In this document: positions 1,280 to 41,406 of the stretch, in pieces | How positions within the stretch are numbered: position 1 is the stretch's first letter | Layout: each line of letters opens with the position of its first letter | Made by a program: the position numbers and the translations under genes | Notes under the pieces: model-generated | What the model was told of the DNA's origin: nothing | Databases searched by the model: none | What the model saw: the letters and a program-made list of their open reading frames with translations, nothing else | From: Candidatus Parcubacteria bacterium | Lineage (GTDB): Bacteria; Patescibacteriota; Minisyncoccia; Phycocordibacterales; UBA918 | Direction of reading: 5' to 3' | Length of the DNA: 64,000 bases | Assembly (NCBI GenBank): GCA_046050355.1 | Contig: JBJOPW010000003.1 | Location: 11,922-75,921, forward strand

Positions 1280-1900
1280 CTATATTGAGAGCACCGCTAT
1301 GTCCCCCTCCATCTCATTCACATCCTTCTTTTTCAACGTGAGTTTGTCGACAGCTTTCACGTCATCAGCACCCGCTTCCTTAAGGAAGGCCTTGAGGGCC
1401 ACCGCATCGTAGTGCATCGGGATAATGAGGCGTGCCTCAAGCTTGAGGCCGAGCTTCGCCGCCTGCGGTACCTCAAGCACATCCCCGCCACCTATTGGGA
1501 TAAAGAGGATATCAATATCGCCAAACTCCGCGAGAATCTTGGGGTCAATCTCTGGATCACCGAGCGCGCCGAGGAATACTATGTTCATTTCTTCGAGACG
1601 CACTTGGTAAATGGTGTTGTAGTGTTCACCTCCAGCATACTTGGTCTTGACCCCGTAGCCACGGGCGGTCACCGTACCAATCTCGTATTCACCCGGACCT
1701 TGCACCACAAATGGTTCTTTGCTGCCATGTGAGGCATTTTCCACCCCATTAAAGTTTGGATGATTGAGTGAGACAAAAGCAACATCAGCGCCAAACTTAA
1801 CCGGACTCAACTTCGATGACTTTGCAATTGGGTCAAAGGCCAGTGTCGTGTCGCCAAACGACACCTTGAAGCACTGCCCACCGTGATATGTGATAACCAT
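1280..1900 (-). CDS. MBL-fold (UPF0173-type) metal-dependent hydrolase
   Basis: MVITYHGGQCFKV...FDP...HYD pattern typical of small beta-lactamase-fold hydrolases. The annotated ORF start (1981) lies inside a perfect palindrome and is AT-rich junk, so ATG at 1898-1900 is preferred. Confidence 0.65.
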   Translation of the reverse strand: MVITYHGGQCFKVSFGDTTLAFDPIAKSSKLSPVKFGADVAFVSLNHPNFNGVENASHGSKEPFVVQGPGEYEIGTVTARGYGVKTKYAGGEHYNTIYQVRLEEMNIVFLGALGDPEIDPKILAEFGDIDILFIPIGGGDVLEVPQAAKLGLKLEARLIIPMHYDAVALKAFLKEAGADDVKAVDKLTLKKKDVNEMEGDIAVLSI

Positions 1901-1953
1901 AGTGGCAGTAGTATACAAGAGGAAATAGAATATAGGAAATTGAATATAGAAAA

Positions 1954-2005
1954 TTTTAGGGGTCCAACCCCGAAATTTCACAATCTCGGGGTTGGACCCC
2001 TAAAA
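1954..2005. repeat. perfect 20-bp inverted repeat (hairpin with 12-nt loop), possible terminator or operator
   Basis: ttttaggggtccaaccccga / tcggggttggacccctaaaa are exact reverse complements. A U-rich tract follows on the minus strand. Confidence 0.6.
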
Positions 2006-2029
2006 TTACCCCTAACATATGTCCGACAC

Positions 2030-3000
2030 AGCCCCCCTTGCATAAATAAAAAGTTGGGAGTATCGTAATCCGTACCGCCGATCTTAAGCGCCGTAGCGAG
2101 TAGGGGTGACGAGCCCCATATAATCGCGGACGAACCAATCGTCTCTCTGGCGCCGAGTTTCTGGCGGTGTTTGCGAAACGGGAGCGAGGAGACAATCCAT
2201 GCCCGATTCGATCGACCGCGGCCATATCCGCGGTTCGCCTGCTGGCGGCCATGCCAGCACCCACGGCCACATCGGTTCCTTCGCGTCGCCTTCGACGATG
2301 GACCAGGCCGAGACCGCGCCCCGGATGTGGGGTCACGGACACTGACGCAACGTTCATGTCAAAGGAGGTGAAAGACATGAAACCGCCGGAGCAGTAGCTC
2401 AAATACCAAGTTCTTCACAGGCTCTAGCTGGTGTGACGCCAGCCTGCCAAAAACCAATCAAAAAGCTCCGACTTCCAAACATCCTTGCCATCACGCTTTT
2501 AAAGCTTTGATGGAAACAACAAGCCTACAAAGAAGGGTTCCGATTTCGAGCAAATAACAGGGAGGGTGAGGTGTTGGCTTCGGCCACACCCCCTCCGCAC
2601 AACCGCCCCAGCCTCCGGCTGCGGGTTTTTCATTTTATCTTTAACGTTCGTCATTGCGAGGAATGGAGCCGAAGCGACATGACGAAGCAATCTAGAGTCA
2701 CATCACAGATTCCTGGATTGCTTCGTCGCTATCACTTCTCGCAATGACGGGTGGAGTTTCCGACCGCTTTTCCCTAGGCAAGGCCTCGGGAACCGTATCC
2801 TATTTACAGTTTTACCCTTTTCTGGTATATTCCCCGCACCGAAAGGTATTAATAGTTTCCTAGCGGCACACGTTAACCCTGGGCTCAAGCACACGGCTAT
2901 GAGATATGGTTGCCCAGACGCGTGTCGTCGGAAGTCGGACAAACACACGAAGCAAGCTTCGGCGTTACGACAGCAATTTTGGTCGTCAATGTACAAATAA
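2030..3000. other. ORF-free, GC-rich, highly structured segment: candidate large non-coding RNA of unknown class
   Basis: No credible ORF in any frame. GC is clearly above the flanking genes. There are nested perfect helices (2649-2660/2738-2749 enclosing 2681-2692/2716-2727), a UUCG-capped hairpin near 2570-2620, and a 10-bp long-range complementarity between 2467-2476 and 2930-2939. Confidence 0.3.
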
Positions 3001-3076
3001 GTACATCTCCTCTCAAAATCTTGTCGCGCCTTGAATCTTATCTCCGTGAGTTCGTCCTTTAACGCATATTAAAAGT

Positions 3077-4162
3077 ATGTCAGAAGAAGTAGTAAACAGT
3101 GTAATGCATACACTCGCCGCCAACATTCCTGATTCTCCAAAAGAGGGTCAATTAGTAGAAGGTACAGTATCAGCCATCGGCCGCGCTCGTGTCTATGTCG
3201 ACCTCCCACCATTTGGTACTGGTCTCATCTTTGGTCGTGAGTACATGAACGCTCGCGACATCCTCCGCAAAGTCTCAGTTGGAGACACCATTGCGGCGAA
3301 GGTTGTTGACGTAAACAACAAGGATGGGTACATCGAGCTCTCACTCAAGGAAGCCCGTCAGGCCCTCATCTGGGCTGATGCCGAAGAAGCCGTGAAGAAG
3401 GGTACGGTTATGAGTCTTGAAGTGAAGGAGGCCAACAAGGGTGGTCTTATCATGGAATGGCAAGGTATCCAGGGCTTCCTCCCAGCTTCACAGCTTGGAC
3501 CAGACAATTACCCACGCGTTGATAACGGCGACAAGGACAAGATCCTTATGGCCCTTAACTCACTCGTTGGTAAGCATCTCGGTGTCGTCATGATCACCGC
3601 TGACCAGAAGGAGCACAAGCTCATCTTCTCAGAAAAGGGTCACCAGGAACGTGAAGAGAAGGGCGAAAAGGTTGGTAAGTACGAAGTGGGTGACGTCCTC
3701 TCGGGCGAAGTGACTGGTGCTGTTGACTTTGGCGTCTTTGTGAAGATTGAACAGGGTCTTGAAGGCCTCGTTCACATCTCTGAACTTGATTGGGGTCTTG
3801 TTGAAAATACTCGCGCCCTCTACAAGGTTGGCGACAAGGTGAAGGTCAAGGTGATTGAAGTGAAGGATGACAAGATTTCTCTCTCAATCAAGCAGCTCCG
3901 TGAAAACCCATGGACTGATGCCGCTCAAAAGTTCGCCAAGGATCAGGTCGTACCAGGTGTTGTTATCAAGTACAACAAGCACGGTGCGCTTGCGTCTATC
4001 CAAGAAGGTGTTGCTGGTCTCGTCCATATCTCTGAATTCGAATCAGAAGAAAAGATGAAGGCTACCCTCTCACTTGGTGGTGTCTACAAGTTCAAGATTT
4101 CTCTCTTTGAGCCATCTGAACAGCGTATGACGTTGACCTTCAAAGATGTAGCTCAGAGTTAG
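3077..4162 (+). CDS. rpsA: 30S ribosomal protein S1 (four S1 domains, short form)
   Basis: Repeated S1-domain pattern: G.lVeGtV..i....vyVDL, GDV..G.V......G.FV.I..G.EGLVHISE. Confidence 0.85.
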   Translation: MSEEVVNSVMHTLAANIPDSPKEGQLVEGTVSAIGRARVYVDLPPFGTGLIFGREYMNARDILRKVSVGDTIAAKVVDVNNKDGYIELSLKEARQALIWADAEEAVKKGTVMSLEVKEANKGGLIMEWQGIQGFLPASQLGPDNYPRVDNGDKDKILMALNSLVGKHLGVVMITADQKEHKLIFSEKGHQEREEKGEKVGKYEVGDVLSGEVTGAVDFGVFVKIEQGLEGLVHISELDWGLVENTRALYKVGDKVKVKVIEVKDDKISLSIKQLRENPWTDAAQKFAKDQVVPGVVIKYNKHGALASIQEGVAGLVHISEFESEEKMKATLSLGGVYKFKISLFEPSEQRMTLTFKDVAQS

Positions 4163-40533: not shown

Positions 40534-41406
40534 TTACGGTTTTTTGATTGACTCAAGCATTGCCGCCACCCCAGCTAAATCTTTGTTGGTACCAGCATCA
40601 AGAATGATGGTATTGCCGTGAGCGGCCGCACTGGTGATGGTATCAAGGCGATTGGTATCAGAAAGGAGTTGAATCGATTGTTCAGTTGAAAGTCCAGCAT
40701 TTTGCATCGTCCGCATCGCTTCCTCAAGACCACGAGCAATCGCTTCACGCATCTCTGCCATACCCTCACCTTGGAGCTTCTTACTCTCCGCCTCAGCCTG
40801 CGCTGCGCCGACGAGCTTGATACGCTGTGCTTCAGCTTCGTTGCGAGCAGCTTCCATGAGACGCTTACTCGCAATCACTTGATTGAAGGCATCGCGCACT
40901 TCAGCACTGGGCTGTGGTTCGTCTACCAGTACATTTTCGATGATGTACCCAAAGCGAGCAAACTGCGCTGAGAGTGCCGACTGGACTTCTTGCTCGACCG
41001 CATCGCGGTTGGCGTAGAGGTCGGTCATCTCCATCCCCGAAGCCGTCTGACGGACATTATTGAGGACGTAAGACGCAATCTGCTTTTCTGGGGCCTCCAG
41101 TTCGTAGTGGGCCTTCACTGCTCCCACACCATCATCACTCGCTCGATACTGTACCTTGACGGGCAAGGTCATAAACGCGTTGTCACTGGTCTTCACCGAC
41201 ACATCAGCATGGATTTCTTGAATCTGTAAGTTAACCCGCGCCACAATAGCGGTAATAGGCCACGGGGCTTTGACATGGAGGCCCGGAAAAACCGCCTGCG
41301 GATGTGGTCGACCAAAGGTTTCGAGAATCGCGGCCGTCTTCCCTCGCACCACATAGAGCATGGACGGGAGGAGTAAGAGCACCAGAACGAGAATAATCCA
41401 AAACAT
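40534..41406 (-). CDS. SPFH/band-7 (stomatin/prohibitin-like) membrane protein
   Basis: N-terminal TM, SPFH domain pattern, C-terminal Ala/Glu-rich coiled-coil. Confidence 0.8.
   Translation of the reverse strand: MFWIILVLVLLLLPSMLYVVRGKTAAILETFGRPHPQAVFPGLHVKAPWPITAIVARVNLQIQEIHADVSVKTSDNAFMTLPVKVQYRASDDGVGAVKAHYELEAPEKQIASYVLNNVRQTASGMEMTDLYANRDAVEQEVQSALSAQFARFGYIIENVLVDEPQPSAEVRDAFNQVIASKRLMEAARNEAEAQRIKLVGAAQAEAESKKLQGEGMAEMREAIARGLEEAMRTMQNAGLSTEQSIQLLSDTNRLDTITSAAAHGNTIILDAGTNKDLAGVAAMLESIKKP

Follow-up and report, generated by a model that had tools for sequence, protein, structure and literature searches.

What fills the 1.18 kb between a metallo-β-lactamase (MBL)-fold hydrolase gene and rpsA, the gene of ribosomal protein S1, in a Candidatus Parcubacteria bacterium? 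The question is raised by a 64-kb stretch of contig JBJOPW010000003.1 (hereafter the window), in which a sequence-only reading had proposed that positions 1954-3000 form one large, GC-rich and highly structured non-coding RNA (ncRNA). Our analysis indicates that the interval is probably a mosaic of independent parts lying in a divergent-promoter spacer, namely a leader RNA of rpsA that would act as an operator for S1, a separate GC-rich unit and a number of insertions (Table 1). Structured and conserved non-protein RNA is indeed present, both in the rpsA leader and in the 5' domain of the GC-rich unit. It is not, however, one large molecule, since the parts differ in their phylogenetic distribution, a predicted terminator and a second putative promoter separate them, and the helices listed in its favour are partly insertions that are missing in the closest relatives.

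For the comparative work, 80 GTDB species-representative loci were retrieved with the S1 protein, the full set comprising 88 loci, which are designated by L-numbers. The window matches the Joint Genome Institute metagenome contig Ga0451701_0000087, and its nearest relatives are metagenome-assembled genomes labelled Paceibacteria, Kaiserbacteria or Parcubacteria (Patescibacteria). The spacer (1901-3076) lies between the minus-strand MBL gene and the plus-strand rpsA and is therefore a divergent-promoter spacer. Most of the 80 species loci retain this divergent pair, the gap ranging from 182 to 2154 nt; as approximately 250 nt suffices for the needs of both genes, most of the 1.18 kb is lineage-specific. 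Wide conservation, as determined by blastn and nhmmer against the 80 loci, is confined to about 2800-2945, which is the region of the rpsA leader.

Alignment of this leader from 25 loci (alignment A2, produced with MAFFT and folded with RNAalifold) revealed a compact RNA in which P2 and P3 are nested and enclose a conserved loop. Its pairing is very consistently maintained: 99.7% of the alignment cells are paired, and seven of the 15 pairs exhibit double-sided changes, in 48 cells. The covariation score of 0.387 falls to at most 0.079 when the partners are slid against one another, and none of 500 shuffles reaches it. Comparative covariation, which the sequence-only reading had named as a check, is thus strong in the rpsA leader. 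In L024, L028 and L034 the whole P2 helix has been swapped (GGGGUGUG/CACACC.CC), while ten loci (L002, L003, L004, L008, L009, L013, L014, L016, L022 and L031) have hairpins of 20-110 nt inserted at a single point of the P3 loop, this site being a typical variable stem. An all-against-all column scan of this loop revealed neither additional helices nor a pseudoknot. The -10 box of the predicted rpsA promoter lies at a constant distance from the leader in all aligned loci. At the other end, the leader structure stops, in most loci, 10-25 nt before an A/U-rich AUG region that is devoid of a Shine-Dalgarno sequence; because the structure ends just before the AUG, we regard the leader as part of the rpsA mRNA, and the loci with short spacers offer no room for a terminator between the two. 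The element is, therefore, a conserved structured RNA in the 5' untranslated region (UTR) of a ribosomal protein (r-protein) gene, carried by the mRNA of that gene, and is a candidate addition to the r-protein leaders.

The distribution of the leader was followed with two models. With model R1, the window and 32 related loci each yielded a single copy, in every case immediately 5' of rpsA; this corresponds to 33 of the 80 GTDB species loci, the species of the window itself (probably L002 or L087) being among them. All R1-positive loci possess an rpsA that is at least 75% identical, and no copy was found in loci with 58-65% rpsA identity. In L032 (830-1200) the leader is broken by G10 and C10 runs and yields two R1 matches (853-1007 and 1044-1198), which may reflect an assembly artefact or a duplication. 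A sister form, in which UUAUUAG is followed by a bulged, covarying P2, by UAAYC and P3, and by ACAA and the AUG, is described by model R2, which matches, at ~70-120 nt ahead of rpsA, 15 more distant loci that R1 misses (L037, L043, L046-L050, L053-L059 and L061). With both forms combined, at least 48 of the 80 species loci possess the leader. Other distant loci (e.g. L062, L065, L067 and L078) display a different conserved pattern upstream of rpsA.

The position and logic of this leader match those of rpsA in E. coli, though its fold is unrelated, and it is on this analogy that we propose it as a candidate S1 autoregulatory operator. In E. coli, free S1 and 30S-bound S1 compete for an rpsA start region that has AU-rich single strands and no Shine-Dalgarno sequence (PMC10931766, PMC3616713). 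Leaders of the E. coli type occur only in Gammaproteobacteria, and Cyanobacteria have another motif ahead of rpsA (PMC10931766, PMC3616713). Like the element described here, the gammaproteobacterial leader is located in the rpsA 5' UTR, adjoins a start without a Shine-Dalgarno sequence, combines helices with AU-rich strands and is limited to a single lineage (PMC3616713, PMC10931766). It possesses, however, three hairpins with GG loops, whereas we observe two nested helices, a UUAAC junction and a 27-nt loop; there is no similarity of sequence or fold between the two and no Rfam match, and the role of S1 is proposed by analogy. The Cyano-S1 motif of Cyanobacteria (cited in PMC3616713) is likewise an RNA motif tied to rpsA by comparative genomics, but belongs to another phylum and has another structure. 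A search of 2800-3076 against Rfam 15 at E<=10, where both the E. coli S1 leader and the Cyano-S1 motif are assumed to be represented, returned no family match.

According to this proposal, free S1 would bind the AU-rich strands brought together by P2, possibly with the conserved loop, and leader-bound S1 would compete with the 30S subunit for the rpsA start region. In the lineage of the window, a foldback of 123 nt would have been inserted between operator and start site. Since it closes on itself, the leader and the start site could stay near each other in space. This foldback is common to the window and L004; in L002 it is missing its central 80 nt, and in most relatives no more than 10-25 nt occupy this position.

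The same element could instead be a metabolite or alarmone riboswitch, the site of another protein or an RNA thermometer, an explanation which we consider rather unlikely. Riboswitch aptamers, too, typically combine a pair of helices with an invariant junction, a conserved loop and a stem whose variation is tolerated, and S1 is generally a low-specificity binder (PMC3616713). Nevertheless, the element is tied to rpsA alone, as neither the window nor the ~0.8 Mb of searched loci contain a copy away from this gene, and autoregulation by S1 is in keeping with its AU-rich flanks and with a start region that has no Shine-Dalgarno sequence (PMC10931766). Furthermore, none of the known riboswitch models in Rfam matches the leader, nor the 5' domain of the GC-rich unit.

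This GC-rich unit, which is predicted to be a separate transcription unit on the plus strand, was found only in the window, L002/L082, L003/L085, L004/L084 and L087, whose rpsA genes are at least 95.8% identical, and which provide five independent sequence variants. A metagenome scan with the invariant 20-mer CTGGCGGTGTTTGCGAAACG added four more copies, each of them at this same place in the genome. The 20-mer also occurs in L083 (1327-1346) and L086 (2194-2213), in unrelated high-GC coding genes (that of L083 is nitroreductase-like); two such matches are about the estimated chance number and were set aside. The sequence-only reading had described the interval at large as richer in GC than its flanks, which is true of ~2100-2400 (62-65%) but not of 2400-3000, where the GC content of 47-53% is the same as that of the flanking genes.

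In all five variants conservation begins at the 2026-2066 block, which holds a weak sigma-70-like promoter. The predicted intrinsic terminator is likewise kept in all five, with a compensatory exchange of CAGCC/GGCUG for CGGC/GCCG, and the 250 nt ahead of it are mosaic. This stem with its U-run is distinct from the UUCG-capped hairpin, which does exist, albeit at 2561-2597 (loop 2579-2582) and not at 2590-2615 as had been proposed. In the 3' part, a mini-ORF (open reading frame) MKPPEQ* with a Pro-Pro motif (2377-2397, plus strand) begins 7 nt after the strong Shine-Dalgarno-like AAAGGAGGTGA (site 2363-2397). It reads MKPPK* in L003, has ATA in place of ATG in L087 and is missing in L004.

RNAalifold assigns the 5' domain -74.4 kcal/mol on the plus strand versus -63.2 on the minus strand, the former being favoured since many of its G-U pairs correspond to A-C mismatches on the latter. 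In this domain 97% of the cells pair, and five pairs show double-sided changes. The hairpin 2174-2190/2196-2210 is invariant and encloses both AGGAGA (2187-2192) and an AUG (2199-2201), while two further hairpins of the domain fall within the ORF that starts there. Invariant runs in the unit extend up to 28 nt, compared to 46-72% identity at the 4-fold sites of the flanking genes, and its 5' half is therefore under purifying selection. A pairing of GUCUCU (2141-2146) with AGGAGAC as an anti-Shine-Dalgarno element was considered and rejected, as it is unconserved in L003.

It is very unlikely that the segment represents a pseudogene in decay or inert DNA gained by horizontal transfer. Such an origin would account for a GC content of 62-65% against about 50% in the flanks, for the narrow distribution, and for the occurrence of one 20-mer in high-GC coding genes elsewhere, but not for blocks of up to 28 nt that are invariant while neutral sites are 28-54% diverged. 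There was, moreover, no protein homology in the tested frames: Pfam returned no match for eight ORFs, a protein search found no homologue of a 148-amino-acid ORF on the minus strand, and tblastx against the relatives favoured no frame. Hence, the pseudogene signal that the sequence-only reading had named as fatal to its proposal was not seen. A phage or plasmid origin was also rejected, as no phage or viral contig matched the segment and the plasmid matches lie outside it, in the nested hairpin only (window 2708-2750).

The description of the interval as ORF-free did not strictly hold, as a 48-codon ORF (2199-2345), also predicted by the Joint Genome Institute gene caller, opens 6 nt after AGGAGA. 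We propose that the GC-rich unit may be either a lineage-specific structured regulatory RNA or the mRNA of a small protein with a structurally gated translation start. The organisation is reminiscent of leader-controlled small ORFs with a buried ribosome-binding site, with which it has in common a multi-helix 5' domain and, after it, an invariant hairpin hiding AGGAGA and AUG; it differs from these in belonging to no known aptamer class, in having only a 48-codon ORF before the terminator, and in residing in a genome that rarely uses Shine-Dalgarno sequences. Indeed, a Shine-Dalgarno-like motif (GGAG, GAGG or AGGA, 4-18 nt before the ATG) precedes only two of the 49 ORFs of at least 150 amino acids in the window, a count for which the first ATG of each ORF was taken as its start, so that some starts may be wrong. 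Many ORFs have a TATACT/TATAAT-like -10 box 7-12 nt before the ATG (e.g. 1900-, 16214-, 19382-, 21677+, 26385+, 46361+ and 60428-). From this scarcity and these near-ATG boxes the genome appears mostly leaderless and Shine-Dalgarno-independent. A literature search on Shine-Dalgarno use in Patescibacteria provided nothing usable.

It is a tentative but serious possibility that the unit is mainly the mRNA of a protein of 38-48 amino acids, whose N-terminus (MPDSIxRGxxRGSP) is conserved and whose C-terminus varies, and that the structure upstream serves translational control. AGGAGA, the 6-nt spacing and the ATG are invariant, the frame is open in all five variants (38-48 codons), the three length differences are all in frame, and the TGA is common to four of the five; frame, start and stop are thus maintained across the relatives. 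The ORF was, furthermore, predicted by gene callers independently in two sources. Against it, the substitutions show no third-position bias over the whole length, where they number 17/13/9 (window versus L003) and 5/8/9 (window versus L087) at the three codon positions, with a non-synonymous majority, although the pattern is equivocal, the corresponding figures for the first 16 codons being 0/0/3 and 2/2/3. The peptide is hardly conserved past codon 14, the high GC keeps another frame open over a longer stretch in each variant, and the conserved codons overlie RNA hairpins with compensatory changes. To this can be added the genome's sparing use of Shine-Dalgarno sequences, the lack of a Pfam match, and the finding of only two protein clusters as relatives among 5.8 billion sequences.

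These same hairpins lend themselves to the possibility, which we also hold with reserve, that the unit is a purely non-coding, lineage-specific structured RNA (a small RNA or an orphan riboswitch-like element) and that the ORF is incidental to its GC content. The hairpin 2241-2258 has been rebuilt from different sequence in L087 and L082, so that structure outlasts peptide; the G-U pairs are specific to the plus strand, and high GC leaves several frames open. Against this stand the three in-frame length differences, the conserved ATG and TGA, the lack of a match to any known RNA class, and weak covariation among only five variants.

Several observations count against the interpretation of the spacer as a mosaic with an S1 operator and a separate GC-rich unit. 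With respect to the leader, the 27-nt P3 loop is conserved in sequence and yet shows no covariation that would explain it, the homology of R1 and R2 would follow from their shared architecture and not from a joint model, and a riboswitch or another protein partner fits the anatomy equally well. In the lineage of the window, moreover, the ~140 nt between leader and AUG weaken a simple occlusion model. With respect to the GC-rich unit, the hexamers of its promoter match at only seven of 12 positions, which is below the scan threshold, and its covariation is thin: there are five variants, most helices are invariant, and the structure was derived from the very alignment that was scored. As only two of the 49 ORFs possess a Shine-Dalgarno-like motif, AGGAGA need not serve as a ribosome-binding site. 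Finally, both putative promoters, both transcription start sites and the terminator have been read from the sequence alone.

It is extremely improbable that the whole 1-kb interval, or its minus strand, encodes a single large structured ncRNA, for instance a divergent form of RNase P RNA. Both strands do fold better than shuffles (2010-3000, z = -5.2 on the plus and -4.5 on the minus strand), so that the description "highly structured" is accurate in itself, but hairpin insertions supply much of this excess. The minus strand also carries a terminator-like hairpin (2007-1952) and, as the sequence-only reading had noticed, the 12-mer AAACTCCACCCG (2748-2759), which is identical to a stretch of the E. 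coli RNase P RNA M1. This single 12-nt string (AAACUCCACCCG) is all that the interval appears to have in common with bacterial RNase P RNA. It is absent from the 87 other loci, so that among the 88 only the contig of the window carries it, and the sequence around it is missing in L003, L004, L082 and L087. The P4 strands of RNase P RNA (GAGGAAAGUCCGGGC and ACAGAACCCGGCUUA) were not found with up to three mismatches in 1954-3000; the sole three-mismatch matches in the window lie near 6.7-7.8 kb, in a number not above chance. With no covariance-model match, no P4, an unconserved 12-mer and pairing in the GC-rich part that favours the plus and not the minus strand, we reject RNase P RNA, and thus the 12-mer does not place the interval in this class. 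In addition, neither the nested hairpin nor the 12-mer nor the 1952-2007 palindrome occurs in the closest relatives, and the interval is divided by the predicted, conserved plus-strand terminator and the second putative promoter.

Searches for other known RNAs were equally negative. On either strand, Rfam gave no match to RNase P RNA, transfer-messenger RNA (tmRNA), signal recognition particle RNA, 6S RNA, group II introns or large ncRNAs. At the gathering score, Rfam 15 reports only four transfer RNAs (tRNAs) in the whole window, and ARAGORN likewise finds only four tRNAs, all elsewhere in the window. At E<=10, both strands of 1850-3150 yield only spurious microRNA-type matches on palindromes, and at E<=1 no match was obtained in the spacers of four relatives. 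UUUGCGAAAC and GAUUCGA resemble the 5' end of E. coli tmRNA, a candidate that was dropped as there is no T-arm, the pieces are in the wrong order and no model matches. A minus-strand RNA ending at the 1952-2007 hairpin was rejected for the conserved domain, in which G-U pairs become A-C on that strand. The long-range pairing proposed between 2467-2476 and 2930-2939 is an exact 10-nt complement, but roughly 0.7 perfect 10-mer pairs are expected by chance in 1.2 kb (an estimate), and one side is altered in L004 without compensation; it was therefore rejected.

The remaining parts of the spacer are palindromic. Two such structures in the sequence-only reading were confirmed in slightly extended form. 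The hairpin at 1954-2005 is part of a palindrome with arms 1952-1977/1982-2007 (96% identity), followed by a U-tract on the minus strand, and the nested helices comprise an outer pair, 2649-2665/2733-2749 (17 nt, 88%), around an inner one, 2681-2695/2713-2727 (15 nt, 93%). As the former lies upstream of the start codon of the MBL gene, it is not the terminator of that gene. It is present in L087 and L082, another hairpin takes its place in L003 and L004, and there is no second copy in the window. For the MBL gene, the block AGTGGCAnTAGTATACAAGAG is kept in all close relatives, and a putative TGnTATACT-type -10 box (1910-1918, minus strand) lies so near the start codon that the MBL mRNA is probably leaderless.

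The nested hairpin (2646-2752) is missing in L003, L004 and L087, has related copies in L002/L082 and is inverted in L005. It thus combines inverted repeats with presence/absence polymorphism, as do miniature inverted-repeat transposable elements (MITEs) and repetitive extragenic palindromic (REP) sequences, with which it also shares variable orientation in relatives, a motif found in unrelated bacteria and tandem copies. It differs from these in being a single copy in the 64-kb window and in that no target-site duplication or transposase was identified. Its GTCATTGCGAG...GGATTGC motif is also found on Methylocystis and Methylosinus plasmids (40-nt match), and the GTCATTGCGAG hairpin repeat family looks like one that crosses phyla; a literature search by sequence for a name of this family produced unrelated primer matches only. 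An intergenic hairpin on the Methylocystis plasmid pGW6_2 (L088 1440-1550) bears the motif, and L074 (230-600) holds a tandem array of ~59-nt units, each with GTCATTGCGAG...GGCAATCC. At 40836-40879 of the window, inverted CTCGCAA-like 12-mers with two mismatches each, ~20 nt apart, may be a further small hairpin belonging to this motif family. In L004 and L087, a perfect CCGAGRCCTTGCCTAGGG-GTAC-CCCTAGGCAAGGCCTCGG palindrome occupies the site at which the window has the nested hairpin; this palindrome lies in the same spacer at ~4640-4690 in L004, ~3205-3270 in L087 and 4500-4545 in L005, and only its 3' arm is left in the window. The spacer is a hot spot for hairpin insertions, and all three palindromic elements are probably remnants of hairpin-forming elements, left by insertion and deletion where insertions are tolerated.

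Table 1. Features of the MBL-rpsA spacer and its flanking genes, in window coordinates.
Feature	Position	Strand	Remarks
MBL-fold hydrolase gene	1280-1900	-	Pfam Lactamase_B_3, E=1e-23; start codon at 1900
Near-perfect palindrome	1952-2007		26-nt arms; minus strand resembles an intrinsic terminator; ~50 nt upstream of the MBL start codon
GC-rich unit	about 2026-2636	+	~560 nt; predicted separate transcription unit; lineage-specific
Conserved block with putative promoter of GC-rich unit	2026-2066	+	Weak, sigma-70-like; TTGCAT 2038-2043, 17 nt, TATCGT 2061-2066
Structured 5' domain	2070-2266	+	~200 nt; conserved; RNAalifold
Helices of 5' domain	2070-2073/2263-2266; 2074-2081/2160-2168; 2088-2093/2148-2153; 2096-2101/2122-2127; 2128-2133/2139-2144; 2174-2190/2196-2210; 2214-2221/2228-2235; 2241-2247/2252-2258	+	RNAalifold
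48-codon ORF	2199-2345	+	MPDSIDRGHIRGSP...; AGGAGA 6 nt ahead; translation uncertain
Fast-evolving 3' part	2346-2560	+	Mosaic among variants; 2442-2565 common only to L004 and L084
UUCG-capped hairpin	2561-2597	+	GGAGGGUG..CCCCCUCC; GGGAGGG..CCCUCC arms in four of five variants, interior variable
Predicted intrinsic terminator	2603-2636	+	GC-rich stem, then U-run GGGUUUUUCAUUUU
Nested MITE-like palindromic insertion	2646-2752		Inverted repeats; motifs GTCATTGCGAG and GGATTGC
12-mer AAACUCCACCCG	2748-2759	-	Judged a chance match to RNase P RNA; in window-specific sequence
Half palindrome	2772-2789		3' arm only; full form in relatives CCGAGRCCTTGCCTAGGG-GTAC-CCCTAGGCAAGGCCTCGG
Putative rpsA promoter	2803-2831	+	TTTACA, 17 nt, TGgTATATT (extended -10); 10 of 12 positions match, TG present; assigned from sequence
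rpsA 5' leader RNA	2838-2935	+	~100 nt; alignment A2, model R1
Leader P1	2838-2840/2845-2847	+	ACC-GAAA-GGU hairpin, GAAA loop
Leader AU-rich strand	2848-2860	+	AUUAAUAGUUUC; between P1 and P2
Leader P2	2864-2872/2921-2930	+	C2926 bulged
Leader junction	2873-2878	+	UUAACC; separates P2 from P3
Leader P3	2879-2884/2912-2917	+	Encloses conserved 27-nt loop 2885-2911
Foldback insertion	2936-3058	+	123 nt; between leader and rpsA start region; folds as one long imperfect hairpin
rpsA (ribosomal protein S1)	3077-4162	+	Four S1 domains; Pfam S1, E=1e-44; no Shine-Dalgarno sequence

The hairpin insertions of this spacer inflate the apparent structure that is seen when a single sequence is read. As for the RNA that is conserved, we give slightly less than an even chance to the proposition that either R1/R2 constitute a new, Paceibacteria-wide S1 operator or, less likely, the 5' domain at 2070-2266 represents an orphan RNA that senses a ligand and gates a buried start codon. 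No r-protein leader of Patescibacteria is described in Rfam 15 or in the literature searched, and the regulatory RNAs of this group are almost undescribed; a covarying leader found with rpsA only is, therefore, a concrete case of possible translational feedback. If the proposal is true, the Candidate Phyla Radiation would gain its first defined autoregulatory r-protein leader, and with it a route to study how the level of S1 is set in ultra-small symbionts. Such an S1 operator would act in genomes that otherwise appear to use mostly leaderless, Shine-Dalgarno-free mRNAs.

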